IMG/VR virus record: IMGVR_UViG_3300020045_013711
Location: 1-57,002 of that record
Source: a virus
Taxonomy: Duplodnaviria > Caudoviricetes
Direction: 5' to 3' (one strand)
Length of the DNA stretch: 57,002 nt
The first letter of the stretch is position 1; the number at the start of each line of letters is the position of its first letter. Made by a program: the position numbers and the translations under genes. Shown piece by piece: positions 1,134-55,988 of the stretch. The notes beneath the pieces are model-generated. The model had not been told where the DNA came from and made no database searches. It was given only the letters and a program-made list of their open reading frames with translations.

Positions 1134-1885
1134 GGTTTAAAAATTACAATCATACTGTCTTTTGTTCCGCTTTGAGTTTTTCCTTTAGAATTTAATGGTA
1201 AATAAAAATTACCATTAGCATCTATTTTACCAAACTTTATTCTACCTTTTACAAATTCAATCTCACTTGCATTTGGTTTGATCCATTCGTGAAATAATTT
1301 TGTGCTTGTTGATACAGGTATAAGAAAAACAGAAACTCTGCAAGCTACAATTTCATACTTTTTAGGCATTAATTCTGATTTCAGATACAATGGATGTTTT
1401 GGCGTTCCATCGTTCGACAAATCAATATAATGTAGGTTTTCAATTCCTTTTAACGGCTTGTAGTTTTCTCCAAATTTTTTACCCAATTTATTTACAATAG
1501 GAGCATTTCCCCAAGCACAAACTATCATCTCAGATTCTTTCGCCATAAAATCAATATGCCATTTATTTAACAAACCCATTGGTTCTTTAGTATTCAATAA
1601 TTCTTTTGGATTTGTAGAACGATAGGCGAATAAGTTTCCAACACATAAAGAACCAAAACCCCAATTCTTTGCAAATCCAATACATCGTCTAATTGTAGCA
1701 TCATCTATATTTGCATCAGCAGTTGATGGGTTTAGCATTAAGAACATAACTCTTGGTTTTGTTTCATCCCATTTTCTTTCAAGAGAATAACGGTATTTTT
1801 CACAATCCGAAAGAACAGCACTACGGCTAACAGCCATTTGGAGCGATTGGGAATTTGTGTTTTCTGAATTATTATTTTGTGTCAT
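1130..1885 (-). CDS. DUF1643-family protein fused to the C-terminal fragment of a phage adenine MTase
   Basis: YRYSLERKWD, MLNPSTAD, VGNLFAYRST, CAWGN and PKHPLY motifs; tail LIPVSTSTKLFHE...KDSMIVIF closely resembles ORF 10655..11086; likely start MTQ at 1885. Confidence 0.7.
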   Translation of the reverse strand: MTQNNNSENTNSQSLQMAVSRSAVLSDCEKYRYSLERKWDETKPRVMFLMLNPSTADANIDDATIRRCIGFAKNWGFGSLCVGNLFAYRSTNPKELLNTKEPMGLLNKWHIDFMAKESEMIVCAWGNAPIVNKLGKKFGENYKPLKGIENLHYIDLSNDGTPKHPLYLKSELMPKKYEIVACRVSVFLIPVSTSTKLFHEWIKPNASEIEFVKGRIKFGKIDANGNFYLPLNSKGKTQSGTKDSMIVIFKP

Positions 1886-1955
1886 AATGATGGTTTTTAT
1901 AGTTAATGATTTCGATTTTTTAGCCCCAACCACACCAAGTGGCAAAACGTTATAG
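1825..1955 (+). repeat. attC-like site A
   Basis: GGCTAAC; arms gccatttggagcgattggg / cccaaccacaccaagtggc; GTTATAG at 1949. Confidence 0.85.
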
Positions 1956-1961
1956 GCAAGC

Positions 1962-1995
1962 AAAAAGCCAATCATTACGGATAAAGATTGGCTTT
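1962..1995 (-). terminator. intrinsic terminator inside cassette
   Basis: aaagccaatc / gattggcttt stem with minus-strand U-tract, downstream of 2018..2203. Confidence 0.6.
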
Positions 1996-2017
1996 GAAAT
2001 TTTGGAAATTAGATGTT

Positions 2018-2203
2018 TTATTCTTTTTGTTTCTTCCAAACAAAAATCATTGATTTTGCCCAGCTTGGCAACTCTTTATTTGGTTGTGTCATTGATTTAA
2101 CAGAATCGACTGTTAAACCTACGATTTTAGCAATATCAGCATTGTTTAAATTAAACTCTTTTTTGAGTTCTTTAAAATCTAAATGTGTTGGAATTTTATC
2201 CAT
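2018..2203 (-). CDS. small HTH protein (cassette cargo)
   Basis: LNNADIAKIVGLTVDSVKSM helix-turn-helix pattern. Confidence 0.65.
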   Translation of the reverse strand: MDKIPTHLDFKELKKEFNLNNADIAKIVGLTVDSVKSMTQPNKELPSWAKSMIFVWKKQKE

Positions 2204-2204
2204 C

Positions 2205-2771
2205 TTATTTAATTCTTACTATTATTAAATCGAAGTCATTTTCTGTTTTTGTTAAAAATTCTTTATTTTTGGTTTTCTTTAAAACAACTAAAACGCTTCT
2301 CAAATAAACTATTTCATTTTTAGCTTTAAGATTTAAATTCAAAACCTTTCCTATTTCTAAATCTTCAATTAATTTTTCTTCTTTACCATATTTTTTTGAA
2401 GATTGACGACCTTCTAATTTTTTTTCGTCTATTTTTTTTACTCTTGCTAAACGAACTAATTCTCTTTTTAACTTTAGTCTATCTGTCTTGATTTCTAATG
2501 AAATATCTTTGATTGATTTTAATCCTAAATTTTGATTAATAAAATCAAAATTATCTATAACATTTTTAGATATTGGTCTAAAATCCAATCTAATATCTAA
2601 ATAAAGGAGAATTTTAATTAATCTATCTGATTTTATATTTAACTCTCCGTTTTCTATTTTTGATAAATTAGAGTGATCTTCCTCTAATAAATCCGCTAAT
2701 TCTCTTAGAGATAACATATAATTTTCTCTTGCTTTTTTTATTACTTTTCCAAAAAAGTTTAAATTTTCCAT
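2205..2771 (-). CDS. XRE/Cro-C1 family HTH regulator (cassette cargo)
   Basis: FGKVIKKARENYMLSLRELADLLEEDHSNLSKIENG. Confidence 0.8.
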   Translation of the reverse strand: MENLNFFGKVIKKARENYMLSLRELADLLEEDHSNLSKIENGELNIKSDRLIKILLYLDIRLDFRPISKNVIDNFDFINQNLGLKSIKDISLEIKTDRLKLKRELVRLARVKKIDEKKLEGRQSSKKYGKEEKLIEDLEIGKVLNLNLKAKNEIVYLRSVLVVLKKTKNKEFLTKTENDFDLIIVRIK

Positions 2772-2773
2772 TT

Positions 2774-3169
2774 TTATTTTACTATTTCGTTAATCTCATC
2801 TTCTAAAATCATTTCCTCAAAACAAAGTTTTTTTATCTGACTTGTTTTAACGTCAACTTGTCCAAATAAAATAACCAACCAAGTATGTCCGCAATCAATT
2901 CTAACACCGTCATTTTGATAAAAAACTGATTCTTTAGAAATACCTTCGTCTTCTAGTAATTCGAAAATTTCAGATAATCCTAAATCAAAATCACAAATAG
3001 TCATATAAGGCGTTAAATCAAAAAGACTAACACTTAAATCAAAAGTGTATAATTCATCACCAGTATTAACATAAGATTCCGCAGTTTCATCGCAAGGAGA
3101 ATAAAAACTACCACAGTTCATATATTCTAATCCTTTTTGCGCGCCTCTGTAAAATTTTTCAGTTCTCAT
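2774..3169 (-). CDS. hypothetical acidic protein (cassette cargo)
   Basis: 131 aa ORF, first gene of a 3-gene cassette. Confidence 0.65.
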   Translation of the reverse strand: MRTEKFYRGAQKGLEYMNCGSFYSPCDETAESYVNTGDELYTFDLSVSLFDLTPYMTICDFDLGLSEIFELLEDEGISKESVFYQNDGVRIDCGHTWLVILFGQVDVKTSQIKKLCFEEMILEDEINEIVK

Positions 3170-3202
3170 AATTTCTATTATGTTTAGATTTCTATACCGT
3201 AA

Positions 3203-3255
3203 AAGTAAACTATATTTTACTTACTACCAAATAATAAGTAAACTATTTTTTACTT
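3203..3255. promoter_or_regulatory. tandem palindromic operators AAGTAAA-N6-TTTACTT
   Basis: two copies, 3203-3222 and 3236-3255, upstream of the 3-gene HTH cassette operon. Confidence 0.65.
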
Positions 3256-3348
3256 ATTTTTATTTCCCTTTATTTTACAAGGTTTTTAGAGTAAAAATAA
3301 TTTTATCTAATTTCCAAAATTTCAAAGAACGTGGTGCAAATTGCCTGC

Positions 3349-3438
3349 CCATAACCTATGCTACTGGCAATTTGCAGAACTCCCTACTATTATTCACGTT
3401 ATGTGGTGGCAAACTGCCAGTAGCATCTGCCGTTATCG
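3349..3438 (+). repeat. attC-like site B (short class)
   Basis: TGCCCATAAC pairs with opener GTTATAGGCA (1949, one mismatch); arms atgctactggcaatttgc / gcaaactgccagtagcat; GTT at 3432. Confidence 0.9.
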
Positions 3439-3798
3439 TTCAGCTTGGTTGGAGTCGTTAACAAAATCGGTATAAAAAGAATCTATATTTCTTTTAATTT
3501 TGTTCATTAATCCTCTTAATATTCGCCCTTTACTAAACTTATCGTGTTCTCTCATTTTTGTATTTGGAAAGTGTACTGTAAAATGAAAATGTGAACCTTT
3601 TTCATCATCCCATCCTGAAAGAGAAGAACCTATATTGTTTTTATCTTTATGACCATAAGTTAAAAAAGCCTCTTCTATCTCTTCTAATGCTTTTACATCA
3701 ACTCCTAATCCTTCCCAAGTGTCATAAGGATATATTGATGTTGCGTGGTTTTCTTTAAAAAACTCAACTGCTTCGGGTTTTAATCTGTAGTTTTTCAT
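3433..3798 (-). CDS. hypothetical protein (cassette cargo)
   Basis: likely start MKNYRLK at 3798; TAA stop lies in the GTTA box. Confidence 0.7.
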   Translation of the reverse strand: MKNYRLKPEAVEFFKENHATSIYPYDTWEGLGVDVKALEEIEEAFLTYGHKDKNNIGSSLSGWDDEKGSHFHFTVHFPNTKMREHDKFSKGRILRGLMNKIKRNIDSFYTDFVNDSNQAER

Positions 3799-3825
3799 TT
3801 TGTTTGTGGTTAAAAAAAGCCGAAA

Positions 3826-3963
3826 CGATAACAATTTCTTTGCGATGATTTTCGGCTTGGTTTATAAATTTTTTTATTGTTTTGTGTCTGTTTTGCTTGG
3901 GTCTTAATCCGAAGCTTGGTTTTGTGCAACTCCGAAAAACCTCGCAAAGAATCAACGTTATAA
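3826..3963 (+). repeat. attC-like site C
   Basis: AACGATAAC pairs with GTTATCGTT (3432); arms ttctttgcgatgattttcgg / ccgaaaaacctcgcaaagaa; GTT at 3957. Confidence 0.9.
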
Positions 3964-3976
3964 GCAATTGTAACAA

Positions 3977-4204
3977 CTACTCGGTTAAATGAAGTGAACA
4001 TAATCTAAAATGATGTATTTTATCAAATCGAATTTTATTTTCATCTTTTAATAAATGATTGTAATAATCTTTGTTGTAAAATTTACAGGTTTCTTTTTTC
4101 GAGCAAATTTCAACTCCTTTTTTAAAATTATAATACTGTCCAGAACAACTGCTTATAACATCGTGTATAATAGATTGCTTGTTTGGGTCTGTGTTTTCAG
4201 GCAT
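3977..4204 (-). CDS. Cys-containing hypothetical protein (cassette cargo)
   Basis: 75 aa; start codon inside attC D loop. Confidence 0.6.
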   Translation of the reverse strand: MPENTDPNKQSIIHDVISSCSGQYYNFKKGVEICSKKETCKFYNKDYYNHLLKDENKIRFDKIHHFRLCSLHLTE

Positions 4205-4286
4205 CTGTTTTTAATTTAATGATTGGTAATTTTTGGAGGTATCAGGTTTAATCGGCGCAACCTCTTATACACGCCGTCCGTTACTA
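4153..4286 (+). repeat. attC-like site D
   Basis: TGCTTATAAC pairs with GTTATAAGCA (3957); arms cgtgtataatagattgc / gcaacctcttatacacg; GTT at 4280. Confidence 0.9.
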
Positions 4287-4697
4287 GCTATGTTGCTTAC
4301 TAAGTTCGTTTAGTGCTGAAATCATATTTTCAAAAGCCTTGTCGAACTCCTTTTCAGATATTTCTTTTTGCAAAGAATGAACATATCCGTAATCTATTTT
4401 TTGTGTAGAAACGTTTCCATCTTTATCAGTTTGAAACGAATATCCTTTATAATGACACGCAACACCATTCCCGCCTGTATCATATAAATCCTCAGGCTTT
4501 ATTTCAGTTATTTTCGTGTATAACCACCAATAATCAGATGGTTTCTCAGGACAACTGTAGTTATTTCTGTTTTTAAAACATTTCCCTTCTAATTTTTTAA
4601 ATTCAGGATAATGCTTTTCGATTAATTCTTGATTTTCTTTTTCGGAAATTAGCTTCAATTGTTTTTTAAGCTCTTCTTTTGATAATAAATTTTCCAT
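4284..4697 (-). CDS. hypothetical protein (cassette cargo)
   Basis: likely start MENLLSK at 4697. Confidence 0.7.
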   Translation of the reverse strand: MENLLSKEELKKQLKLISEKENQELIEKHYPEFKKLEGKCFKNRNNYSCPEKPSDYWWLYTKITEIKPEDLYDTGGNGVACHYKGYSFQTDKDGNVSTQKIDYGYVHSLQKEISEKEFDKAFENMISALNELSKQHS

Positions 4698-4721
4698 ATT
4701 GTTTGGTGTTAAAAACACAGC

Positions 4722-4855
4722 TAGTAACACATAATTGTAGCAATAGCTGTATGGTTTTTGCATTTAATGTTTTGCGTTTTCTTGTTTTTATCAGTTTTTA
4801 ACCGAATGATAATTTTGTGTCAGCACGCTACTGCTACAATTATCCAACGTTACCT
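4722..4855 (+). repeat. attC-like site E
   Basis: AGCTAGTAAC pairs with GTTACTAGCT (4280); arms ataattgtagcaatagc / gctactgctacaattat; GTT at 4849. Confidence 0.9.
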
Positions 4856-4876
4856 GCAAGTGCTATATTCGTGCTT

Positions 4877-5584
4877 TTAAGAACTTTTTGCACCTGTGTA
4901 AGTAAATAATTTTTCAATTGCTTTTTTACTTCCTGTATCTTGTGTTAATGAGCTTACAATTTCTTTACTCCAGATACATTTAAAGTCATTTGGCGCATTA
5001 TATTCACTAACAAACACAATGTGACCTTCGTTTGATTTATCTCTGCACCATTGCCAGAAATCAGCGTGATTAAACCCGTCTTTATAAGATGTTGTTCCTT
5101 CGTATGGTGGGTCGCAATAAATCAGGCTATTATCAGGAATTTGTAATTTATCGTAACTTTCATTTACAAATCTAATTCCTTTTAAACTTTCGCTTTGGTT
5201 CAATGCGTTTTTGTAGGCTTCATTTACATAATCACGTTTATTTAATCCGTCGCGACACCAGCCTCCAAGCCATTTACCGCTATAAGAAAATGCAAATCCT
5301 GCATAACCTTTGTATTTATAATCATCACTTTTTCGTAATGATTTATAATCCTCTTCAGTAAACTCACGATTATTTTTTGGTAAGTCACAAATACAATCTC
5401 TTATCGCAATTAAGGCATCAATTAGATAATTATTAATATCTGCTCCAATTCTTTTACCTTGTACTTTATCAATTAAATTTGCGCCTCCTACAAATGGTTC
5501 GACCCAAGTTCTTTGCTCTCTTTCTTTTAACATTATCGGCAGTATTTCTTTTGCTATTCGATTTTTTGAACCCATATATTTCAT
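4877..5584 (-). CDS. DNA adenine methyltransferase, Dam/D12-like (cassette cargo)
   Basis: KYMGSK, EPFVGGAN (motif I), IYCDPPY (motif IV). Confidence 0.9.
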   Translation of the reverse strand: MKYMGSKNRIAKEILPIMLKEREQRTWVEPFVGGANLIDKVQGKRIGADINNYLIDALIAIRDCICDLPKNNREFTEEDYKSLRKSDDYKYKGYAGFAFSYSGKWLGGWCRDGLNKRDYVNEAYKNALNQSESLKGIRFVNESYDKLQIPDNSLIYCDPPYEGTTSYKDGFNHADFWQWCRDKSNEGHIVFVSEYNAPNDFKCIWSKEIVSSLTQDTGSKKAIEKLFTYTGAKSS

Positions 5585-5616
5585 AAGATATTTTGTTTTA
5601 AACAAGCCACACCAGC

Positions 5617-5748
5617 AGGTAACAAGTGCTTGAAGAAATGGCTTTATTTGTTTTTAATTTAAAGATTAGTTTTTGTCTGTGATGTCTGTTTTTAATTAGA
5701 TGATTTGGCGTACTTGCACGCCACTTCGTCAAGCACCATACGTTATGG
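5617..5748 (+). repeat. attC-like site F
   Basis: GCAGGTAAC pairs with GTTACCTGC (4849); arms gtgcttgaagaaatggc / gccacttcgtcaagcac; GTT at 5742. Confidence 0.9.
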
Positions 5749-5749
5749 G

Positions 5750-6172
5750 CTATGCAGTTGGAACGGCATAGCTTTGTTTTATATATTTCATCAATAAATT
5801 TTGATTGCTAGAAATCCTTGGATTATAATCAAATCTGATAAAATCAACCAAATTCACTTCTTCGGAAATAGAAATAAAATCTTCTAATGAAATTGTTTTT
5901 ACAAAATCGGCTTTATCCATTCTTAAAGAATAAGTACCGTCTTCTTTGTATTTTTTTATTCTACATTCAATATCAATTACAGTTTGAATTTTATTATTGA
6001 AATGTCCGCTTTGAAGTTCCCAAAAACAGCAGTCGATATCAATCCCAAATTTATCTTCAAAAACTGCAAATGAATCAACACTTAATTTTTGATTTTCAGG
6101 TAATTCAATAGCTAAAAATTGTTCTAATTTTTCTTTTGAAACTTTCTTTACTTTGATGTCTTGTATTTTCAT
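5750..6172 (-). CDS. hypothetical protein (cassette cargo)
   Basis: 140 aa ORF filling the cassette. Confidence 0.7.
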   Translation of the reverse strand: MKIQDIKVKKVSKEKLEQFLAIELPENQKLSVDSFAVFEDKFGIDIDCCFWELQSGHFNNKIQTVIDIECRIKKYKEDGTYSLRMDKADFVKTISLEDFISISEEVNLVDFIRFDYNPRISSNQNLLMKYIKQSYAVPTA

Positions 6173-6205
6173 TTTTGATAATTTTAGTTACCGAAAAAGC
6201 ACAGC

Positions 6206-6340
6206 CCATAACAAGTGATATGAGCGATTTTCGGCATCGTGATTATTGATTTATTGTTTTGTACTTGGTTTGTTCTGTGACAGCGGAAGGATTACGGCTT
6301 ACTACTCCGAAAATCCGCACATATCACTGAACCGTTATCA
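6206..6340 (+). repeat. attC-like site G
   Basis: AGCCCATAAC pairs with GTTATGGGCT (5742); arms agtgatatgagcgattttcgg / ccgaaaatccgcacatatcact (one bulged C); GTT at 6334. Confidence 0.9.
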
Positions 6341-6341
6341 C

Positions 6342-6554
6342 TCATTTTATAGAACGTTTGCTGATAACGAGTTCAGATTTCCGAATGATGCAAATTTCAT
6401 TCTCAAAAGGCGTTTCAAAATTCCATCTATCAAGCGTATATTTTGAGATTCCGATTTCGTGAGTATTGCATAATATTGTTAAATCCCCGTAATAAAAATG
6501 CTTTTCGTTTTCGAGTGCATTTTTAAATTCAATGTGAAATAGTTTTTTATTCAT
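6342..6554 (-). CDS. hypothetical protein (cassette cargo)
   Basis: 70 aa ORF. Confidence 0.6.
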   Translation of the reverse strand: MNKKLFHIEFKNALENEKHFYYGDLTILCNTHEIGISKYTLDRWNFETPFENEICIIRKSELVISKRSIK

Positions 6555-6670
6555 TTTTTTTTATTTTAATAAAAGAAAGGTTTTCGCCTATATTTACTTT
6601 TATATGTTTTTCAATAAAAGGTTTACAATTCTGAACTTCAACTAATTTGTTGCTTTTCCTTTCTTTAAAT

Positions 6671-6883
6671 TTAAACTTTTATTTTGCTAAGTTCTTTTTT
6701 TACTCTGTCACGATATATTTTAAAAAACTCTATGTTGTTATCTATAAAATCTTTAGACTCTGTTCTTTTATCTGATTCCCAATAATCAACTGCGTTTTCA
6801 GTATAAGGAAGTATATTTCTTAATCTATACTCCCCTAATTCTTCATAAATACTTGGTATTTCAGGCTGTTTAAATTTTGACAT
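6671..6883 (-). CDS. hypothetical protein (cassette cargo)
   Basis: 70 aa ORF, coupled to upstream stop. Confidence 0.6.
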   Translation of the reverse strand: MSKFKQPEIPSIYEELGEYRLRNILPYTENAVDYWESDKRTESKDFIDNNIEFFKIYRDRVKKELSKIKV

Positions 6884-7155
6884 TATTTTTTGAAGTTTTT
6901 AAATTCTTCTTCTGTCATTTTTTCAAGTCTTGATTTCAATTCATTTTGATTTTCAATTCCTGATCCAAATCCTTCTATAAATAAACATTTGAACGCTTCT
7001 AATTTTTTGCTTTTGCTTAATTTAGAATATCTCACAAATCCTAAAGAATAGGTTTTTTCAATTTTAGCATTTTCTTCTTTAGTTCCGAAAATCTCAGTCA
7101 ATCCATTTACAATTGCTTCTGCTCCGTTTCTGTCTGTGTAGTAAGTAGTTTTCAT
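6883..7155 (-). CDS. hypothetical protein (cassette cargo)
   Basis: likely start MKTTYYT at 7155. Confidence 0.65.
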   Translation of the reverse strand: MKTTYYTDRNGAEAIVNGLTEIFGTKEENAKIEKTYSLGFVRYSKLSKSKKLEAFKCLFIEGFGSGIENQNELKSRLEKMTEEEFKNFKK

Positions 7156-7177
7156 AATTTCTATTTGTTTGATTTTG

Positions 7178-7209
7178 TTATACAAATATAGTGATTAATA
7201 TTTGTATAA
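7178..7209 (-). promoter_or_regulatory. cassette-internal Bacteroidota -7 promoter (TATATTTG) inside a 12-bp inverted repeat
   Basis: ttatacaaatat-N8-atatttgtataa; caaatata at 7183-7190 is TAnnTTTG on the minus strand. Confidence 0.6.
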
Positions 7210-7265
7210 ACCTAATTAAATTACAAAAATAAATGTTAAAATTTGTAAATGAATAAAAAAACGAG

Positions 7266-7362
7266 TGATAACACGTGCTATGAGCAATATTGCCTATAAC
7301 GTTTAGTGCTACACGACAACTTTTTTCTAAGGCAATACTGCACATAGCACTATCCGTTATCA
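7266..7362 (+). repeat. attC-like site H (short class)
   Basis: GAGTGATAAC pairs with GTTATCACTC (6334); arms gtgctatgagcaatattgcct / aggcaatactgcacatagcac; GTT at 7356. Confidence 0.9.
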
Positions 7363-7368
7363 GGAATA

Positions 7369-7572
7369 CTACGATTGTGGTTTTAAAGATGATTTTAATA
7401 CCATATCATATTCTTCCGGCATTTGAACTAATGGTGTTTGTTTTGAGAACATCGCAAGTATATTTTGTAACAACTCGTTTTGTTCTTTTGAAATACCTAA
7501 TTGTATTATTCTATCTCCTTTTTTCATAATAAGAGCAATATTTCCTTCTTTTTGTTCTTCAAATGTTGCCAT
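7369..7572 (-). CDS. hypothetical protein (cassette cargo)
   Basis: 67 aa ORF filling the cassette. Confidence 0.65.
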   Translation of the reverse strand: MATFEEQKEGNIALIMKKGDRIIQLGISKEQNELLQNILAMFSKQTPLVQMPEEYDMVLKSSLKPQS

Positions 7573-7602
7573 AACATATTTAGTTTTAAATTTCCGTACT
7601 CC

Positions 7603-7738
7603 TGATAACAGTTGCTATAAGAGATTTTCGGTATTGTTTATTAATCGTTTTATTTGTGTGTATTTGCGGTGATTTGGCAAAGCGGAAAGATGGTTTTATA
7701 TTCATCCGAAAATCCTCACATAGCACCAACCGTTAGTA
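7603..7738 (+). repeat. attC-like site I
   Basis: TCCTGATAAC pairs with GTTATCAGGA (7356); arms tgctataagagattttcgg / ccgaaaatcctcacatagca; GTT at 7732. Confidence 0.9.
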
Positions 7739-7744
7739 GCCATT

Positions 7745-8179
7745 TTAATAGCCATCTGCTCTAAATTCAAATTTTTCAAGTTCATTGTATTTATCCCAAA
7801 CCGCTTCAAGTTCTATTTGGAAAACTTCTACAATTTCAATTCTTCTTCTTTCAAAGATTGGTTTGAGTTGTAAAAATGCTTTTGGATAAAGTTGTTCAAA
7901 GTCTCCATACCACATTGCTCCACAAGTCAAATCTTTATTATCAACCATATCAATATATTTTTCATCAAACCATTCATAACCATAGGATTCTTTACTTAAT
8001 TTAGGTTTTGATTTAAAAAAGACGATACAATTATAATGACCTCCGTATATTCCTGCCCAAACTTTTCTAATAGATAATTTTGGAGGTTGAAATTCTGCTT
8101 TCACCACAAAACGGCTACTAACAGCCATTTGGCAAGATTGGGTATCAGGCTTGTCTGAATTATTGTCTTGTGTTTTCAT
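7745..8179 (-). CDS. hypothetical protein (cassette cargo)
   Basis: 144 aa; start inside attC J loop. Confidence 0.7.
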   Translation of the reverse strand: MKTQDNNSDKPDTQSCQMAVSSRFVVKAEFQPPKLSIRKVWAGIYGGHYNCIVFFKSKPKLSKESYGYEWFDEKYIDMVDNKDLTCGAMWYGDFEQLYPKAFLQLKPIFERRRIEIVEVFQIELEAVWDKYNELEKFEFRADGY

Positions 8180-8248
8180 TGTTTAGTTTTTAAGTTAATG
8201 TTTAGGATTTATTTACCCCAAACTACCACAAGTTGCAGGACGTTATGC
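8116..8248 (+). repeat. attC-like site J
   Basis: GGCTACTAAC pairs with GTTAGTAGCC (7732); sequence related to site A; GTT at 8242. Confidence 0.85.
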
Positions 8249-8270
8249 AGGATTGCTACATTTTCGTTTC

Positions 8271-8558
8271 TTAACAAAAATTAGCAATATTGCTAGTAAT
8301 TATATAATGTGATTTACAAGGAAAATTATAATTGCCTACAGAACCAATTAAAGATATTTTTTTACCATCAGAACTCTTCACAATTTCCCAGTTTCTTCCA
8401 CCGCCCAAGGGCGTTATTGTTTTTAATCCACAACCGCATAAGCAATTATGAGTTGCTGTTTTATATTTTTCGGATATGTATAATTTATTTTCCTCAATTA
8501 CTTCTGGAATGACATCGACAAATACAGGTTCAATTGTTACTTTTTTAATCGTTTTCAT
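8271..8558 (-). CDS. Cys/His-rich protein, DUF6527-like (cassette cargo)
   Basis: LYIS..Y.TATHNCLCGCG...SVGNYNFPCKSHY. Confidence 0.7.
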   Translation of the reverse strand: MKTIKKVTIEPVFVDVIPEVIEENKLYISEKYKTATHNCLCGCGLKTITPLGGGRNWEIVKSSDGKKISLIGSVGNYNFPCKSHYIITSNIANFC

Positions 8559-8590
8559 AATAAAATTTAGTTTTAATCATCCACAACCCC

Positions 8591-8724
8591 GCATAACAGT
8601 AGTCTTGAGCTAGTGGCAGTTGGTTTTGTATCCGAAAAGACTCGGATAGTATTAATTATTGTTTTATTTTTGTTGGCACTTATCTTGAATCGAGCCACCA
8701 GCACAAGGCTACAAAACGTTATCA
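8591..8724 (+). repeat. attC-like site K
   Basis: CCCGCATAAC pairs with GTTATGCAGG (8242, one mismatch); arms gtagtcttgagctagtggc / gccaccagcacaaggctac; GTT at 8718. Confidence 0.9.
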
Positions 8725-9084
8725 CTCAGCTTGTGAGCAACTTTGTGTTGAAAGAATTTTAATGGCATTTATTAGTCCATATTCTAAAGCATCTTCATAT
8801 TTTGAAAACAATTCTCCATAACCGTAATTACAATATTTTTCATCATCAACATTATTGATGGAAGTGGTAACACACACATCATATATTACTGGATGATTAT
8901 TTTGACTACTAAATTGATGTGATATTAATACATCTGTATTTTTTTGTTCTCGCAACCATTTTTGTAAAACAGATTGTGTTGGTTTTACTTCATAACATAT
9001 ACATTCAGTAAATCCTCCACAATTACAAGTTTTTAAATCAAAACCTATATTTTTTGCTAATTGAAATGTTTTATCAGAAATCAT
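8722..9084 (-). CDS. hypothetical phage protein (cassette cargo)
   Basis: 120 aa; PTQSVLQKWLRE...YEDALEYGL. Confidence 0.7.
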   Translation of the reverse strand: MISDKTFQLAKNIGFDLKTCNCGGFTECICYEVKPTQSVLQKWLREQKNTDVLISHQFSSQNNHPVIYDVCVTTSINNVDDEKYCNYGYGELFSKYEDALEYGLINAIKILSTQSCSQAE

Positions 9085-9108
9085 AATTTTGCGTTTAAAA
9101 AGCCGAAG

Positions 9109-9241
9109 TGATAACAGCTAGTATATTTCAGCTTGGCATCAGGCTTGATTAATAATTGATTTTGTGTCAGATTTATGGTTTCCCAACCGAAAGATTTGGC
9201 TTACTTGTCCCAGCCGAAATTATACTAGCGAACCGTTAACC
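9109..9241 (+). repeat. attC-like site L
   Basis: AGTGATAAC pairs with GTTATCACT (8718); arms gctagtatatttcagct / agccgaaattatactagc (one bulged T); GTT at 9235. Confidence 0.9.
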
Positions 9242-9607
9242 GTAATTCTCGTAACTATAGTCAATAAAAAGCTCTTCTTCTAAATCAATTTTAAATTGAA
9301 AACCATATCCCCAATGATTATCTCCGTTTTCATTAGCATTATTTCCACTTTCTGAAAATTCTACCCATAAATGACCTTCTGATAACCAGTTTGATAAAGT
9401 TAAATCATCAATTGTATCGCTTGTATCTGTTTGAAGTTCTTTAAAATCATAATTTAACGCTGTATATAATTCCTTTGCAAAATTATATTCTTCATCATTT
9501 TCTTTTAGATATTCTTCATAACTTTCTTGTGTCGGAAATTCTTTTAAATGATTAAGTTTTACTTTATTAAATATCTCTCTGTAATCTATAAAATCAACTA
9601 ATTGCAT
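9236..9607 (-). CDS. hypothetical acidic protein (cassette cargo)
   Basis: 123 aa; TAA stop lies in the GTTA box. Confidence 0.7.
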   Translation of the reverse strand: MQLVDFIDYREIFNKVKLNHLKEFPTQESYEEYLKENDEEYNFAKELYTALNYDFKELQTDTSDTIDDLTLSNWLSEGHLWVEFSESGNNANENGDNHWGYGFQFKIDLEEELFIDYSYENYG

Positions 9608-9617
9608 AATGAACTAC

Positions 9618-9751
9618 GGTTAACAGCTACTACAAAACATTTGGGTAACTGTGATTAATTAAAAAATAGTTTGTACCTGTTTTAATTCGTGAGTACTCGA
9701 ATATTTTAGCTTCCTTAATCCCAAACGATTTGTAGTAGCAAAACGTTACCA
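9618..9751 (+). repeat. attC-like site M
   Basis: TACGGTTAAC pairs with GTTAACCGTA (9235); arms gctactacaaaacatttggg / cccaaacgatttgtagtagc; GTT at 9745. Confidence 0.9.
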
Positions 9752-9757
9752 GTAATG

Positions 9758-9985
9758 CTACCCTCGCATACGGTTAACTCGAATTTGTAAATTTTCACGC
9801 TCTTCAAATAATTCACAAAGCCGTTTATTAAAATCATTATGACTACTTCCTTCTTTGGCTGTAACGTTTAATTCTTGCAATCCATTTAGTTTAATAGTTT
9901 CTCCTTTTTGAAGTCTATAAAGCATATCAATTGAACCGTTTATGATGTCAATTTTATTTTTCATATTTATTAAAAGTCTATTCAT
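9758..9985 (-). CDS. hypothetical protein (cassette cargo)
   Basis: 75 aa ORF filling the cassette. Confidence 0.65.
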   Translation of the reverse strand: MNRLLINMKNKIDIINGSIDMLYRLQKGETIKLNGLQELNVTAKEGSSHNDFNKRLCELFEERENLQIRVNRMRG

Positions 9986-10020
9986 TTTGATAAATTTAGC
10001 ATCCGAAAAAAAAGCACTAC

Positions 10021-10156
10021 TGGTAACAAGTGATATGAGCGATTTTCGGCATTGTGATTATTGATTTATTTTTTTGTACTTGGTAATATTATTTTGTGGC
10101 TGAAATATTGGCGATTCCTACTCCGAAAATCCGCACATATCACTGAACCGTTACCT
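10021..10156 (+). repeat. attC-like site N
   Basis: TACTGGTAAC pairs with GTTACCAGTA (9745); arms identical to site G; GTT at 10150. Confidence 0.9.
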
Positions 10157-10162
10157 GCTATG

Positions 10163-10576
10163 CTACCAATGAACTTCAAAGGGCATTTGTTCTATAATCT
10201 GTTTTCCAATTGGAATTGATAGGATTATATTTTTAAAGTCTTTAAAATCAATTTTTTCTTTTGTCCAAAAAACAGATTTTGTTCCACTTCTATTGTCTTT
10301 ACAACTCCCAGAAATTCCACAAATATAATATCCATCAATTTCTAAATAAGTTATTAATCCTTTGCCTGTATATGGTGGTACAATATCTTCTGGACTAAAC
10401 GGCAAATCTCTAAACCAAACTTTACTTTTCAAAAGCCTTTCTTTTTGCAAAATCCAAAAATAATGCCCTGCACTCGTTAAGTCTGTTCCAAAGTAATCAA
10501 GCACAGCAGGTAACAGCGGTTTTGTGCTATTGCCTAATTCGTCTTGAACCTTATTATTGTTTTGTTCTTCAATCAT
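10163..10576 (-). CDS. hypothetical protein (cassette cargo)
   Basis: likely start MIEEQNN at 10576, inside attC O loop. Confidence 0.7.
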   Translation of the reverse strand: MIEEQNNNKVQDELGNSTKPLLPAVLDYFGTDLTSAGHYFWILQKERLLKSKVWFRDLPFSPEDIVPPYTGKGLITYLEIDGYYICGISGSCKDNRSGTKSVFWTKEKIDFKDFKNIILSIPIGKQIIEQMPFEVHW

Positions 10577-10641
10577 TTGTCTTAAATTTAAAGTTTTAGG
10601 TGTGTTTTTAGGCAACATCACAAAGCCACGAACCGTTAGGG
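10508..10641 (+). repeat. attC-like site O
   Basis: AGCAGGTAAC pairs with GTTACCTGCT (10150); arms gcggttttgtgctattgccta / taggcaacatcacaaagccac; GTT at 10635. Confidence 0.9.
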
Positions 10642-10654
10642 CAAATAGCTCTAT

Positions 10655-11086
10655 TTAGTTTTTCAGAACAACTATCATACTATCGTGCATCCCGCTTTGT
10701 TTTGGTGTATAGATGTTTCCGTTTTCGTCAAAAGTTCCAAATCTTAATCTACCTTTTACGAATCGAATATCTTTTGCGTTTGGCAAGATCTTTTCGTGAA
10801 ATAATTTTGTTGAAGTACTTACCGGAATAAGCAAAACACATACATTCCCTTTTTTGCTTTCTTCAATTGCTCTATCAACAAAAGCTTCTTTTAATTTTCG
10901 GGAATAAGGAGGATTAATAAAATTAGATTTCCCCCATTTTATCAACAATCCATCTTTATCACTTGTAATTTTTTCTTTGTTCAGCGGGCAAGGGTCAAAA
11001 TCAAAATTAAATTCAGCATTCAATTCATCATAAAATTCTTTTGGAGTAGCCCAATTGTCTGAGTGATCTAAATTTCTATTTTTCAT
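10655..11086 (-). CDS. phage DNA N6-adenine methyltransferase (cassette cargo)
   Basis: DNWATP, FDFDPCP, FINPPYS motifs of the short phage Dam family. Confidence 0.85.
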   Translation of the reverse strand: MKNRNLDHSDNWATPKEFYDELNAEFNFDFDPCPLNKEKITSDKDGLLIKWGKSNFINPPYSRKLKEAFVDRAIEESKKGNVCVLLIPVSTSTKLFHEKILPNAKDIRFVKGRLRFGTFDENGNIYTPKQSGMHDSMIVVLKN

Positions 11087-11289: not shown

Positions 11290-11320
11290 AACAACTTTTT
11301 CGTTAAAAATTCACTACTTG

Positions 11321-49544: not shown

Positions 49545-50828
49545 TTATGCTCCTAATACTAATTGACCTTCAAATATCAAAATTTGCTCATCATTAAGCT
49601 TGTTAACTGCTTTTGTGATAGCTGCATCAGTAGATGATGTAGTCAATGTTTGACCTGGTGAAGCTGCATTCAATCCTGTAATTGCGCTTGCTTTAGTATA
49701 GTCAATTCCTTTGTATGTCCAATTTGCATTACCCTCAATTTGTGTACTTGTATCAGCATCTGAAACATCCATCAAATAGATTGAAGTTACATTGTCAAGT
49801 ACTGGTAAAGCTAAAGCCTGAGAAGAAGTAAATTCACGAACAGGATCATTTGTTCCATATTTAGATAATAAAATTAAATCATCTACTTTTTGGTAATCTA
49901 CTTGTTTAACCGGAAATGCTTCTTCAGCTAACGAACCATAAGTCAAAGTACCAACGTTTAAATCAGTCAAGAAACAAACAACATTAGCAGCCCATGGAGT
50001 TGTAACAGCACGTTTACCGTTTTGCTCAACTAACATTTGTCTGTCAATAATTGTAATTTCAACTCCGTAATTAGGTTTTAAAAATTCATTTGCTTTAGCT
50101 ACGTTTGGAACTGTTGGAATTTGAGTACCTACAAAACCAAGTGAAAAAGCGAATTCCTGCTTAACTTGTGTATTAGCTTTGAATAAATTCCAAGTGTTTA
50201 AATCCATAAACAAATATGAAATTTTATCACCATTTACTTTTGCTTTTGCAATAACATGATTGATATCATCAATAGGTGTTGCGTTTGCATCTGTCCAAGG
50301 TAAGCCAACTCCAAATTTATTAGCATCAGGATGACCAAAATCAATCCTAACACCTACTCCTGTTGAATCATCTCCAGTAATTACCGTGAATCCTGTTGAT
50401 AATGCTTCCAAAAACATAAATTCTAATGTTTCGTAAACACCATTAACGCATTTTTTCATATCTGAAAATAAACTTCTAAGAACTTCAGATTCTTTACCGC
50501 CAATAGCGAGCAAAGTTCTTAATTCACTCATAGTTGTTTCGTTAAGATACATTTTCATTCCTAATTTAGGAATATCACCGTTTGCTACTTGTATAGAATC
50601 TCTTCTTTTTAAAGGCAGACTTGAATCCAATGCAACAATATCAGCTCTAACAATTGCGCCATTATTAGAAACAGATCCCCATTTCAACGTAGTCGAAAAG
50701 GTTTTTCTAAGCATGGTTTTATGTAAATATGTCAATGGTGTTTTAGTTCCATTAACAGTTTCTACAATTTTAAGGGCAAAGGACTTAAAGTACTTATCAA
50801 CCCACTGAGGAAATAATGATTTTTCCAT
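49545..50828 (-). CDS. major capsid protein (lambda gpE-like)
   Basis: 427 aa; GDIPKLGMK, EALSTG, IDFG, NDPVREFT, ALPV. Confidence 0.85.
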   Translation of the reverse strand: MEKSLFPQWVDKYFKSFALKIVETVNGTKTPLTYLHKTMLRKTFSTTLKWGSVSNNGAIVRADIVALDSSLPLKRRDSIQVANGDIPKLGMKMYLNETTMSELRTLLAIGGKESEVLRSLFSDMKKCVNGVYETLEFMFLEALSTGFTVITGDDSTGVGVRIDFGHPDANKFGVGLPWTDANATPIDDINHVIAKAKVNGDKISYLFMDLNTWNLFKANTQVKQEFAFSLGFVGTQIPTVPNVAKANEFLKPNYGVEITIIDRQMLVEQNGKRAVTTPWAANVVCFLTDLNVGTLTYGSLAEEAFPVKQVDYQKVDDLILLSKYGTNDPVREFTSSQALALPVLDNVTSIYLMDVSDADTSTQIEGNANWTYKGIDYTKASAITGLNAASPGQTLTTSSTDAAITKAVNKLNDEQILIFEGQLVLGA

Positions 50829-53127: not shown

Positions 53128-53928
53128 TTATACTGGTAAATTTAGTTTAGATAAAGAAGCTGTTGAAACATGACAATAAATTTCAGTAGTTTTTACATTG
53201 GCATGACCTAGGTGCTGTTGAATGTATCTAAGATCAGTTCCAGCTTCTAATAAAGCCGTTGCGTTTGAATGTCTAAGAATATGCATATGATATTCTTTTC
53301 CAATATATTTCTTTACTAATTGGTTACAGCTAGTTTCGCTATATTGATTTGAAAACTGTCCATTAAATAAATATTCTTTTGGTTGGTATTCAGTAAAATA
53401 AATCCTAAGAAGTTCCAAAACTTTTTGACTTAACGGAACAATTCTGTCTTTATTGCCTTTTGAATTTCTAATAAAAATTATCATGCGTTTGCTGTCAATA
53501 TCAGCTATCAAAAGATTAATTACCTCAGATACTCTCATTCCTGTTGAATAAGTCATTGTGAGCAACGCTTTATGTTTGGTATTGGTTATTTTATCCAATT
53601 GCGATAATAGAAACTCCTTCTCAATTATTTTAGGTAACTTTTTTTCCGACCTAGGATATTTTATATATTTAAACTTCATAGGTTGCTTTACAACCATTTC
53701 ATAAAATAATTTCAAAGCCGAAATACTATGAGCCATTGAGTTCCTTGTCTTGAATTGTAATAACCAATTTTTTATAGCTGTTTCATTTATTTTTGAAGGC
53801 TCAGTAAATTGTTCTTGGTTTCGTAAAAATAAATCTACTTGTGCTGAATAGTTTTTAATAGTATTCTCAGCATAATTTTTTAGAGTTAACTCTTTCCGAT
53901 ACAATTCAAGGTACTTAGGAATATTCAT
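53128..53928 (-). CDS. tyrosine recombinase, candidate cassette integrase (no IntI-specific insertion)
   Basis: N-terminal NYAENTIKNY SAM-like domain; YSTGMRVSE, KGNKDR, HILRHS, LGH, TTEIY catalytic residues intact. Confidence 0.92.
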   Translation of the reverse strand: MNIPKYLELYRKELTLKNYAENTIKNYSAQVDLFLRNQEQFTEPSKINETAIKNWLLQFKTRNSMAHSISALKLFYEMVVKQPMKFKYIKYPRSEKKLPKIIEKEFLLSQLDKITNTKHKALLTMTYSTGMRVSEVINLLIADIDSKRMIIFIRNSKGNKDRIVPLSQKVLELLRIYFTEYQPKEYLFNGQFSNQYSETSCNQLVKKYIGKEYHMHILRHSNATALLEAGTDLRYIQQHLGHANVKTTEIYCHVSTASLSKLNLPV

Positions 53929-53929
53929 G

Positions 53930-53990
53930 GTATTAAGTATTAAGTTTATTGATGTTCACACATTTTTAGCACATATAGTAGTTATAGGCA
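53930..53990 (+). other. attI-like primary recombination site (G/TT at 53981)
   Basis: GTTATAGGCA opens cassette 1 but has no attC palindrome upstream; 53 bp from the integrase ATG; gtattaa-gtattaa direct repeat at 53930. Confidence 0.75.
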
Positions 53991-53999: not shown

Positions 54000-54704
54000 T
54001 TACCATAACGTGAGTTGATTTTTATAATCGACAAATCTTTTTTCTTGATTTTCAAAATATGTAGGATCAAGTTCTGAAGCAGTAAAATCTAATTTTGCTT
54101 TATCAGCCGATATTCTACTACTTCCTGATCCTAAATGTGTATCAAGTATTTTATCGCCTTCTTTTGCAAAGTTTTTAAATATCCAGTCATATAGCTTTAC
54201 AGGTTTTTGCGTTGGGTGTATTCTTTTTTCTTTGTCTTTCATATCGTGTTGTATCATTCCGTGCCAGGCAATTTTAACCGATTTAATGCTGTTTAATAAA
54301 GAACAGTAAGCAAGTTCGCCATCGCTATAAGTTGGCATTGTGACACATTTGTCCCAATAAATTCTGCCTCCAGATAAAAAGTCAAATGGGTAATAATTTA
54401 AACCCCAAATTATTTGTTGTTTAGATACTCTAAATAATTCATCAAAATATTCTTTGGTCGGTACATCGGCATCCCATTTTTGCTCTCCGTATTTTTTTGA
54501 TTTGGAAGCGCTTTTTTTACTTTGTTTTTTATCTGTACTATTTTTAACGTCAGCATTAATTCCGTAAGGCGGGTCAACTACTGCTAAATCAAAATAGTTA
54601 TCGGGGTATTGCTTCATTAATGCCACACAATCCATTAAATAAACCGTACTGCCTATAACAGTGGTTTGAAGCAAGTGGGCATCGGTCTTTAATTCATTAT
54701 TCAT
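54000..54704 (-). CDS. DNA N6/N4 amino-methyltransferase, beta class (first cassette)
   Basis: DLAVVDPPYG, IHPTQKPVKLY, ILDTHLGSGS. Confidence 0.9.
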   Translation of the reverse strand: MNNELKTDAHLLQTTVIGSTVYLMDCVALMKQYPDNYFDLAVVDPPYGINADVKNSTDKKQSKKSASKSKKYGEQKWDADVPTKEYFDELFRVSKQQIIWGLNYYPFDFLSGGRIYWDKCVTMPTYSDGELAYCSLLNSIKSVKIAWHGMIQHDMKDKEKRIHPTQKPVKLYDWIFKNFAKEGDKILDTHLGSGSSRISADKAKLDFTASELDPTYFENQEKRFVDYKNQLTLW

Positions 54705-54784
54705 TTTGTACTTGGATTAATAGTTTATAATTTAATGTTTGGGGCTTATTTCCCCCACCTGCGTCAAGCCACGAAACGTTATAA
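54653..54784 (+). repeat. attC-like site 1
   Basis: TGCCTATAAC pairs with GTTATAGGCA (53981); arms gtggtttgaagcaagtggg / cccacctgcgtcaagccac; GTT at 54778. Confidence 0.9.
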
Positions 54785-54788
54785 CTCA

Positions 54789-55070
54789 TTATACCACCTG
54801 ACGACTATTCTCTTCATCGACAACTTTTATAATCGGAGTTTCATAAACGTGTAATCCAGTAATCGTATTTCCATCATCTAAGAATGTGATGTTTGTAACG
54901 ACCTGAGTTTTATTTTTGCTTTTCTGAACAACTCCAATCCATTTATGATTTTCGCCATCAAAACTTCCATTATCCATTTCAAAGTTTGCAGTTTTCAAAG
55001 CGTTGGATAAAATTTGTCTTAAATTAGTTTCTTGTAATTGTCCTTCTGAGTTTTTAAAATATAGTTCCAT
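54789..55070 (-). CDS. hypothetical protein (cassette cargo)
   Basis: 93 aa ORF filling the cassette. Confidence 0.7.
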   Translation of the reverse strand: MELYFKNSEGQLQETNLRQILSNALKTANFEMDNGSFDGENHKWIGVVQKSKNKTQVVTNITFLDDGNTITGLHVYETPIIKVVDEENSRQVV

Positions 55071-55082
55071 AAAAATAACGAG

Positions 55083-55214
55083 TTATAACAATGCATTGTA
55101 GCTATTATTGCATTGTTTTTTGATTTATAATTCAGTTTGTATTTGTTATAATTTGTGTTTAATCGAAGCATTGTTTTGTCCTTTCAATAACAGCGACAAT
55201 GCTCAACGTTAGCC
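55083..55214 (+). repeat. attC-like site 2
   Basis: GAGTTATAAC pairs with GTTATAACTC (54778); arms gcattgtagctattattg / caataacagcgacaatgc; GTT at 55208. Confidence 0.9.
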
Positions 55215-55219
55215 GTCAG

Positions 55220-55462
55220 TTAAACAAATGGAGTAATCTGATTTCTTTTAAACCACCAACTTTTAGTGTGAAATTGTTCTTCAGGCATATCTCTATATTT
55301 ATAAACTACAACTTCTATAATAGTTCCTTTTTTAAACAATAATTTTGGTTTTTGATTCCAAGATTTAGGTATGTCTTGATAAATATCTTTGTTTACAATA
55401 TATTTCCCTAAACATCCATATTTTTCACGTTCAGACCATGCGATTTCTTTTGAACTTTCCAT
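55220..55462 (-). CDS. hypothetical protein (cassette cargo)
   Basis: 80 aa ORF. Confidence 0.65.
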   Translation of the reverse strand: MESSKEIAWSEREKYGCLGKYIVNKDIYQDIPKSWNQKPKLLFKKGTIIEVVVYKYRDMPEEQFHTKSWWFKRNQITPFV

Positions 55463-55466
55463 GTTC

Positions 55467-55988
55467 TTATTTTAAATTATTTGGAACACTCTCTAAATCT
55501 TTACATTTAAAAAAATTAAGAGTTTTTTCATCATTTTCAAAAAAAACACCTACATTTTTCGCATTTGATAAATCAATATTTTCAATTTTACGAGTCCAAA
55601 AACCCATTCTTGAATCAATTCCTAAATGAAAAGAATATGGATAACTGCTATAAGTATATGCATGTTCTTTTTTAGAATAAGGATTTATTTCTCCTGTTGG
55701 ATAAACAGTTACTTTATCATCAGGAATAGATACAGCAACGATTGTAGCTTTGTAAGATTTTTTACCTATTACAAAATCAACTTCAAAGCCAATAAGATTG
55801 TTTAATTTTTCAAATTTCAACCTATCTTCATTACTTAGTTTTAATGCGTTTTTATAAGCTGTTTTGTTTGGTGCAGAAAAACTGCCCTCCCATTTATATT
55901 CATCAGTATAACCATAATCATATTCCGTAACCGAACGGCTAACAACCGCTTGCTTTTCAGCTTTTTTATTTGTGATTTCTGTTTTCAT
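55467..55988 (-). CDS. hypothetical protein (cassette cargo)
   Basis: 173 aa; start inside attC 3 loop. Confidence 0.7.
   Translation of the reverse strand: MKTEITNKKAEKQAVVSRSVTEYDYGYTDEYKWEGSFSAPNKTAYKNALKLSNEDRLKFEKLNNLIGFEVDFVIGKKSYKATIVAVSIPDDKVTVYPTGEINPYSKKEHAYTYSSYPYSFHLGIDSRMGFWTRKIENIDLSNAKNVGVFFENDEKTLNFFKCKDLESVPNNLK

Follow-up and report, generated by a model that had tools for sequence, protein, structure and literature searches.

Classical integron cassettes consist of a promoterless open reading frame (ORF) followed by a non-coding attC site. Fused gene cassettes, in which a coding sequence crosses a former attC, have reportedly been seen in class 1 integrons as rare accidents that result from attC loss. 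In T4-type phages, the hyperplastic regions also contain stem-loops that flank small accessory genes. These promoter-early stem-loop (PeSL) cassettes carry promoters and reportedly aid shuffling by homologous recombination; they are not known to possess boxes, an attI, or a recombinase of their own. Clusters of attC sites lacking integron-integrases (CALINs) have reportedly been noted in phage genomes as well (Cury et al., 2016). Qi et al. (2023; PMC9892861) describe CALINs in 17 phages, among them one of a Polaribacter phage that carries two methyltransferases and two attC sites, one of which was recombined by IntI1. Where integron sites are known to be used for coding, the nearest parallel is ORF-11 in attI1, described in a review (PMC8876359) as a short ORF with its own initiation signals that overlaps the crossover and helps cassettes without an initiation region. 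We found no paper describing start codons in attC loops or a Xer-like cassette array in a phage; the term "start codon" does not occur in the text of Qi et al. (2023; PMC9892861), whose CALIN list may include relatives of this phage. Here, we analyzed the virus record IMGVR_UViG_3300020045_013711, the entire 57,002-base assembly of which is called the window below. Judging from its sequence, we consider it quite probable that the window carries an integron-like cassette array in which about one third of the cassettes start translation inside their own attC-like hairpin, with these hairpins serving as sites of a Xer-like recombinase.

The hairpins were found by a constrained-folding scan of the minus strand, after which 21 were confirmed by hand, five at positions 54656-56886 and 16 at 1828-11408 (all array features given below lie on the minus strand). 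Their lengths range from 84 to 132 nt, and they follow the form yyyyyTAAC-G-N4-stem-loop-stem-(C)TGTTAxxxxx, with TAACG and GTTA invariant over the 21 hairpins, variable stems, and a mean column identity of 45%. The stems are interrupted by a one-sided 4-nt bulge and by 1x1 mismatches, extrahelical bases not being evident, and enclose A-rich loops of 60-70 nt, which are 50% A on the coding strand versus 39% genome-wide. All 21 elements are thus imperfect inverted repeats in which the R''/R' boxes (..AAC / GTT..) are conserved and the rest of the sequence varies, as in the attC sites of integrons. Additionally, in 17 of the 20 consecutive pairs, the 5 nt that follow GTTA in one hairpin were a perfect complement of the 5 nt that precede TAAC in the next, compared to 0 of 21 within one hairpin and 7 of 400 among the remaining pairs; of the three misses, one (54781 to 11408) bridges the phage body and does not connect true neighbours. 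This complementarity is the signature of cassettes whose two ends rebuild one recombination box and, together with the junctions at AAC| in Freya phages described below, agrees with the integron rule that cassette ends reconstitute one R box with the crossover in G|TT.

RNAalifold gave no consensus pairs on a MAFFT alignment of the 21 hairpins because stems of differing sequence and length were misaligned, and a gapless arm scan recovered 3 of the 21, missing most because of the bulge. The folding scanner is noisy in AT-rich DNA and returned false elements inside genes (e.g., 22579-22664, 25482-25637, 28987-29079, and 35247-35380). The last of these, located within the 904-aa gene 34882-37596 and well away from the array, is a TAAC...GTTA hairpin of great stability (-42 kcal/mol when folded on the plus strand and -28 on the minus strand).

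Flank complementarity fits either polarity, and the attI junction, the Freya isolates, and shared hairpin cores were used instead to orient the cassettes. The attI-like junction (53971-53990) lies 43 nt before the recombinase ATG, where TGCCTATAAC (53990-53981) is joined to the conserved core TACTATATGT (53980-53971). No hairpin is found there: TGCCTATAAC comes after the stop (54000) of a methyltransferase gene, and the end of this methyltransferase cassette, GCCTATAAC, joins hairpin-less DNA just upstream of the integrase ATG. The cassette end is complementary at 5 of 5 positions to the flank of hairpin 54656-54781. All 35 relatives displayed were variable up to ...AAC and then conserved, from the same core through to the recombinase start, and a regular expression for the attI motif matched 49 of the 74 loci with enough upstream sequence.

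Polaribacter phages Freya_1, 5, 6, 8, 9, and 10 (L001-L004, L168-L171), cultured isolates belonging to a single phage species, differ almost solely by 0-12 small genes beside the integrase. Freya_1 and Freya_10 align in two blocks, at 100% and 99.9% identity, and are set apart by a 4.9-kb insert directly upstream of the recombinase gene that holds 12 small genes; Freya_5, 6, and 9 hold other subsets. At every Freya junction, ...AAC| is joined to the same attI (ACCCCTATAAC...) or to a cassette 5' end. These isolates are a natural series of cassette gain and loss and would serve as an experimental system; the Freya evidence consists of junction alignments, and a generic hairpin scan of Freya gave no clean hairpins. 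As in integrons, attI is adjacent to the integrase gene and cassettes are inserted there, with gain and loss seen in five Freya isolates. Given that the junctions fall at the outer AAC, the attI crossover is placed in the outer (gene-distal) box, and a cassette consists of a hairpin and the gene downstream of it. The attI junction and the Freya cassette indels thereby bear out the plus-strand cassette polarity that the first-pass annotation of this stretch had proposed, and the outer-box crossover bears out its use of the name R'' for the gene-proximal box. All cassette ORFs point toward attI and the integrase gene with the hairpin 5' of its gene, and not, as in integrons, with the ORF upstream of its attC and read from the cassette promoter Pc at the attI end.

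Stable stem-loops between small accessory genes on one strand, which would fold in mRNA too, could also be explained as terminators or as RNA stability or regulatory elements between early genes, comparable to the stem-loops of T4-type hyperplastic regions, the coding overlap then being a by-product of compaction. We regard this as highly improbable, given that end complementarity holds between neighbouring hairpins and not within one, that the TAAC/GTTA boxes are invariant and the stems variable, that a conserved attI lies beside a tyrosine recombinase, and that cassette indels are precise in the Freya isolates. Qi et al. (2023; PMC9892861) also report that an attC of a Polaribacter phage was recombined by IntI1 in E. 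coli.

In-frame loop ATGs were present in 7 of the 21 window hairpins, with every start codon predicted from sequence and homologue N-termini taken from automatic gene calls. The first-pass annotation had placed six likely start codons (1885, 4204, 8179, 10576, 54704, and 55988) in attC loops and had quoted the leader peptides; scripts recovered all six ATGs in the loops, each with a frame open through the 3' arm and the inner GTTA into the downstream ORF, and the peptides matched letter for letter. It had further proposed that the attC supplies the initiation region and the start codon. This interpretation is supported, with a strength that varies by start: three of the six starts (1885 or its alternative 1837, 4204, and 55988) are forced into the hairpin, one (54704) is likely, and two (8179 and 10576) are ambiguous. 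At least three window genes have no alternative start.

The first of these encodes a DUF1643 protein with a C-terminal Dam-like extension (1130-1885). There is no start codon between the arm ATG 1837 and the conserved DUF1643 block SAVLSDCEKYRY, so that the start would lie inside the hairpin, at 1885 or 1837; the arm ATG, still within the hairpin, is an equal candidate to the loop ATG. A 20-sequence alignment showed leaderless homologues beginning with M.K.A[VI]IS.C.KYRY, and leader-bearing homologues with diverse leaders of 20-30 aa, all ending in xV[ST]xx right before the conserved block. The 75-aa ORF (3977-4204) has loop ATG 4204 as its sole possible start, and the next start of the 173-aa ORF (55467-55988) is TTG 55820, 56 codons in and within conserved sequence; as predicted from these frames, both genes must start inside the hairpin. 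Five homologues of the 173-aa protein have a body conserved from [SP][VI]TEYDYGYTD, one of them leaderless (MRTITEYDF) and four with different leaders; a search of viral contigs for loci related to this protein found none.

For the N6/N4 DNA methyltransferase (54000-54704; Pfam PF01555), the first cassette beside attI, a start in the hairpin, at loop ATG 54704 or arm TTG 54674, is likely and not forced. Among its 120 best homologues, the initial Met is mostly 25-33 residues before DPPY, corresponding to 5-10 before ..MDC, and about 25 have longer, varied leaders; the majority of homologues are leaderless. Comparison to 80 viral loci gave no match before residue 6, with two matching from 13 and most from 19-25. 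All 51 homologues of the 144-aa ORF (7745-8179) align only from query residue 25-44, mostly with query 26 at subject 2. The expectation, set out with the first-pass annotation, that homology to non-cassette proteins should begin only after the R'' box is borne out by the DUF1643, 173-aa, methyltransferase, and 144-aa homologues. Homologues of the 137-aa ORF (10163-10576) were not found, with no relatives in viral contigs and no tblastn match against phages, and an element of locus L007 at 3137, which has the same leader family as 10576, offers no alternative start within 60 nt. The seventh loop ATG, 4763, opens a 159-aa ORF (4284-4763) that has a plausible alternative ATG 4697 at the usual +28 nt.

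The same arrangement was followed across relatives in 80 viral loci fetched with the recombinase as query (45-94% identity over the best segment), 52 of which had at least 3 kb of upstream sequence; 39 of these had at least three elements within 6 kb upstream on the same strand. Window and relatives together yielded 351 elements, 335 with a downstream ORF. An in-frame hairpin ATG was absent from 207 of these. Of the elements that had one, 76 also offered another start in the first 60 nt past the hairpin and 52 did not; some false elements are included in these counts. After removal of elements inside long ORFs, 295 remained. In these, loop ATGs open to the element end shared the frame of the downstream gene in 116 elements, compared to 27 and 23 elements for the two remaining frames (chi-square p = 2e-22, with elements not all independent), and all loop ATGs were distributed over the frames as 158, 90, and 62.

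Leader counts were based on 298 unique elements, with 34 others set aside as inside genes. An in-frame loop ATG was found in 101 of the 298, and in these the inner GTT was at codon positions 1/2/3 in 67/6/28 elements, compared to 55/65/77 in the 197 elements without a loop ATG. This skew partly reflects TAA/TAG avoidance in one frame; the difference of 67 vs. 28 remains (binomial p = 8e-5). The 20 nt upstream of loop starts were 57% A with a mean unpaired probability of 0.75, versus 40% and 0.57 for post-hairpin starts. Differences between homologous leaders at codon positions 1/2/3 of the loop part numbered 247/185/282, and 465/411/461 in a non-coding control of the 45 nt upstream (65 non-independent pairs in both), which suggests a weak coding signature.

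Leaders and hairpins were reused on unrelated genes. All six leader families of the window recur on other gene bodies in related phage contigs, as anticipated in the first-pass annotation, which had also called the first two leaders homologous. Homologous hairpins were indeed found, at 1885 and 8179, and a third copy, in locus L005, begins a 442-aa C5 methyltransferase whose frame offers no further start from the hairpin up to motif I. Locus L165 carries the same body as the 75-aa ORF with a different leader. In loci L166 and L167, it is the hairpin and leader of 4204 that recur (leader identities of 89% over 19 aa and 83% over 18 aa), here joined to unrelated bodies at a break immediately past GTTA. 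The leader family ..ENLNISDV was on more than 10 different bodies. Contigs of four wastewater metagenome runs matched single cores from box to box (4155-4283, 9621-9748, 1828-1952, 4725-4852, and 9112-9238; 5 of the 32 pieces listed), and other contigs matched gene bodies alone. Joints in these metagenome contigs were set aside as evidence of excision, their sides being shorter than 30 nt.

Several points weigh against starts inside hairpins or against the simplest form of the cassette model. The automatic gene calls behind the homologue N-termini favour long ORFs, and 5 of the 120 methyltransferase homologues start at the MDC methionine, corresponding to ATG 54635. The alignment register of the 144-aa protein makes GTG 8107 the equivalent of the Met of leaderless relatives, which leaves start 8179 ambiguous; start 10576 is ambiguous too, with GTG 10504 located 7 nt past the hairpin. 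The codon-position signal is weak, with a third-to-second ratio of ~1.5. In locus L085, the methyltransferase body is 92% identical to that of the window at the protein level and the hairpins share ~60-65% nucleotide identity (a by-eye estimate); given this near-neutral leader divergence between close homologues, the leader peptide itself seems to have little function. The recombinase is predicted to lack the IntI insert, and its role on these hairpin sites is that of a candidate. Finally, both flanks were unrelated in 115 of the 169 element pairs sharing cores, which outer-box crossover alone does not explain. A methyltransferase leader swap between loci L085 and L086 was considered and rejected, given that the hairpin divergence fits near-neutral drift from a common ancestor.

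The same observations could be read as loop ATGs being incidental, with all genes starting just past the inner box and the leaders representing open 5' untranslated region. Such a reading would accommodate the poor conservation of leaders between close homologues, the 51 homologues of the 144-aa protein that align only past the leader, the alternative starts available in 4 of the 7 cases (54635/54617, GTG 8107/8104, GTG 10504, and 4697), and the cassettes without an in-frame loop ATG, since the first start of the downstream ORF is 14-39 nt past the hairpin in 12 of these 14. However, this reading would leave ORF 3977-4204 without any start, would cut into the conserved N-terminal sequence of the 173-aa and DUF1643 proteins, and would give the C5 methyltransferase of L005 no start before motif I. 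The in-frame excess of 116 vs. 27 and 23 and the 52 of 335 elements with an in-frame hairpin ATG and no nearby alternative, even with some false elements among them, also argue for starts inside the hairpins, and we judge incidental ATGs to be an unlikely explanation.

The exchange of hairpin cores bears on polarity as well. If polarity were classical, the hairpin would belong to the upstream gene, the crossover would be at the inner G|TTA, and the preceding cassette would donate leader and start, as in attI1/ORF-11. Near-identical hairpins followed by unrelated bodies that begin immediately past GTTA, the unrelated downstream flanks in the 115 of 169 pairs, the metagenome contigs that match single cores from box to box, and the inner GTT frame preference (67/6/28), which makes swaps frame-compatible, would all suit this alternative. 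We nevertheless find it less credible still than incidental ATGs. The attI junction and all Freya indels are at the outer AAC box, beside the integrase gene, and a cassette end (yyyyyTAAC) without a following hairpin is impossible from inner-box crossover. Moreover, among the 169 pairs with cores at least 85% identical, the downstream flank alone was shared in five and the upstream flank alone in none, and the upstream flanks of shared cores were as unrelated as the downstream flanks, which points to exchange at both boxes and not to reversed polarity.

Given that cores are shared with both flanks unrelated, hairpin cores behave as modules bounded by both boxes, and we infer occasional exchange at the inner box, for example when the other strand folds. 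This affects one argument of the first-pass annotation, that excision with any other polarity would remove the N-terminus: the polarity stands, while the argument is weakened because leaders are exchanged at the inner box over evolutionary time.

Returning to cassettes made of a hairpin and its downstream gene, each begins with the outer box TAAC and the 4-nt bulge; the two sides of the imperfect stem then enclose the A-rich loop, and the inner box GTTA leads over to the gene. With the crossover for attI insertion in the outer box, the hairpin moves with the downstream gene. Being long, A-rich, and unpaired, the loop would serve as the initiation region, and roughly a third of the cassettes would have their start codon there. 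Initiation regions of this kind are reportedly used by Bacteroidota, a phylum in which initiation is also reported not to be led by Shine-Dalgarno sequences. The ribosome would then read the 3' arm and the inner box (GTT, mostly Val) as the first 15-25 residues, and the non-coding 5' arm would be free to co-vary, keeping the stem paired. Both the actual start of translation at the loop ATG and the core swaps by inner-box crossover are what we infer from these patterns.

In such an array, a recombination site in front of a gene would supply the initiation region, the start codon, and the N-terminus of the protein, and a site that acts as folded DNA could withstand the constraint of encoding protein in one of its arms and have its sequence influenced by it. 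This would explain how every cassette is expressed in an array read "backwards". More tentatively, and with somewhat less than even chances in our view, the hairpin core might be a portable "first exon", in which inner-box crossover within coding sequence grafts the initiation region, start codon, and leader onto compatible ORFs. If true, site-specific recombination would assemble expressible genes, in a largely standard grafting frame (GTT read as Val in 67 of 101), and would offer a route by which new cassettes gain an attC, an unsolved step of integron biology. The reuse of hairpins and leaders on many bodies is a testable handle on cassette birth and on the swapping of anti-restriction methyltransferases and other accessory genes by phages. 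Gene callers and IntegronFinder-type tools will mis-annotate such cassettes, with the start or the strand wrong.

The 21 sites of the folding scan can be listed from the distal end of the first block. Hairpin 56801-56886 (short class) is followed by a gene start at +37 nt, 56359-56484 by one at +28, and 55086-55211 by one at +16, while 55940-56068 contains loop ATG 55988, and 54656-54781, the hairpin closest to attI, contains loop ATG 54704 and arm TTG 54674. The second block begins at the far array end with 11324-11408 (short class, gene start at +35), followed by 10511-10638 with loop ATG 10576 and by 10024-10153, whose core is 87% identical to that of 6209-6337, with unrelated flanks. Gene starts follow 9621-9748 at +14, 9112-9238 at +28, 8594-8721 at +36, 7606-7735 at +34, 6209-6337 at +37, and 3829-3960 at +31. 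A D12 methyltransferase gene (identified with Pfam) starts at +15 or +36 past 5620-5745, the first starts past 7269-7359 (short class) are TTG at +84 and ATG at +114, and 3352-3435 (short class) has no downstream ORF passing the filters. In-frame starts are found in 8119-8245 (loop ATG 8179, arm ATG 8128), 4725-4852 (loop ATG 4763), 4156-4283 (loop ATG 4204), and 1828-1952 (loop ATG 1885, arm ATG 1837). Two length classes were observed, 84-91 nt and 125-132 nt. The short class, comprising 3352-3435, 7269-7359, 11324-11408, and 56801-56886, never has a start codon in the window, and in relatives one short-class hairpin family is common to many otherwise unrelated cassettes.

Between 1828 and 56886 across the contig ends, both the cassette end expected after hairpin 1828-1952 (ACGGCTAAC) and the partner motif of hairpin 56801-56886 (GTTATAGCA) were absent. 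The stretch formed by 1-1828 and 56887-57002 holds four ORFs and no hairpin, and its cassette ends are mismatched; this points either to rearrangement or fusion of the unit or to contig ends that do not truly adjoin. At the far array end, a minus-strand element at 11754-11780 (TTTG ... TACATTTG) lies upstream of a small lipoprotein-like ORF (ATG 11720) and points into the array. The box at 11761-11754 is presumably the Bacteroidota-type TAnnTTTG -7 box, and the element is a candidate promoter for the whole array.

DNA methyltransferase cassettes of the array comprise the D12 class (4877-5605), Dam (10655-11086), and N6/N4 (54000-54704), with a sub-threshold Dam-like fragment at 1130-1885, and a C5 methyltransferase (16787-18424) lies outside the array; this cargo looks like an anti-restriction set. 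With respect to the Dam-like fragment, Pfam placed DUF1643 at residues 62-196 of the 281-aa ORF read from ATG 1975, and residues 216-281 scored 25.1 bits against the C-terminal part of the Dam model PF05869, under the cut-off of 28.1. The ORF extends ~66 residues beyond the end of all 19 aligned homologues, and from its sequence the extension looks like a fusion with a Dam gene fragment. A Pfam search of 10 cassette proteins left nine without a significant match (eight with none and one with a sub-threshold CRR7 score of 17.3 bits, cut-off 25).

The window has a G+C content of ~30% and long ORFs almost all on the minus strand. Pfam identified a portal (11875-13308), a large terminase (13326-14801), a major capsid protein (49545-50828), a tape-measure-like protein (42587-46186), RecT (27191-28084), the C5 methyltransferase mentioned above, and a tyrosine recombinase (53128-53928). 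Given its portal, terminase, capsid, and tape-measure genes, the window is a complete tailed-phage genome. A megablast search of window positions 40-48 kb against phages gave no match.

The candidate cassette integrase is the Xer-like tyrosine recombinase of 266 aa (53128-53928; Pfam PF00589, 8e-36, and SAM_4). Its top NCBIfam model was XerA-like (185 bits). The IntI model TIGR02249 scored 147 bits (cut-off 265), with the best stretch at profile positions 3-205 of 315, and PRK15417 scored 86 bits (cut-off 435). The closest recombinases in bacterial genomes were from Flavobacterium, at 69-72% identity (e.g., F. urumqiense), from which we would expect a Flavobacterium-type host, and the closest in cultured phages were those of Polaribacter phages Leef and Freya and Cellulophaga phage Ingeline, at 31-35% identity. 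The same TAAC-TACTAT..T motif as in the window was upstream of the recombinase gene in two of the three such Flavobacterium contigs examined that had upstream sequence (F. urumqiense and one contig of a metagenome-assembled genome). Two Flavobacterium genome contigs (L173 and L175) carry a 69% identical recombinase, the same attI motif, and a few hairpins upstream. These may be prophages or chromosomal arrays, and given that they are Flavobacterium genome contigs, the system is not limited to free phage contigs.

Compared to known systems, the array is most like integrons: its sites are imperfect hairpins whose ...AAC / GTT... boxes are conserved while the stems vary, its cassette ends pair with one another, and it has a crossover within AAC/GTT and an attI beside a recombinase gene that points away from array growth. 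It differs from integrons in its 266-aa Xer-like recombinase without the insert of IntI-type integrases, in having every gene on the strand opposite to the classical one with the attC 5' of its gene, and in its hairpins, which have a one-sided 4-nt bulge, 1x1 mismatches, and A-rich loops of 60-70 nt, about one third of them holding a start codon. Methyltransferase cargo is shared with the CALIN of Polaribacter phage P12002L, and repeated stem-loops around small accessory genes in a plastic phage region are shared with PeSLs. Xer-type chromosome-dimer and integrative mobile elements exploiting Xer (IMEX) recombinases act at a 28-bp two-arm dif-like site with no cassette array, whereas the recombinase gene of the window adjoins an attI-like junction and 21 hairpin sites; a dif-like site was not searched for. 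Coding sequence runs across attC both here and in fused class 1 cassettes, but in the window the hairpin is intact and the arrangement systematic. ORF-11 of attI1, as described in the review (PMC8876359), is likewise an initiation-bearing short ORF inside a recombination site. However, ORF-11 lies in attI, serves the first cassette only, and acts mainly by coupling, whereas in the window the start would lie in the attC loop of each such cassette, fused in frame to the cargo protein.

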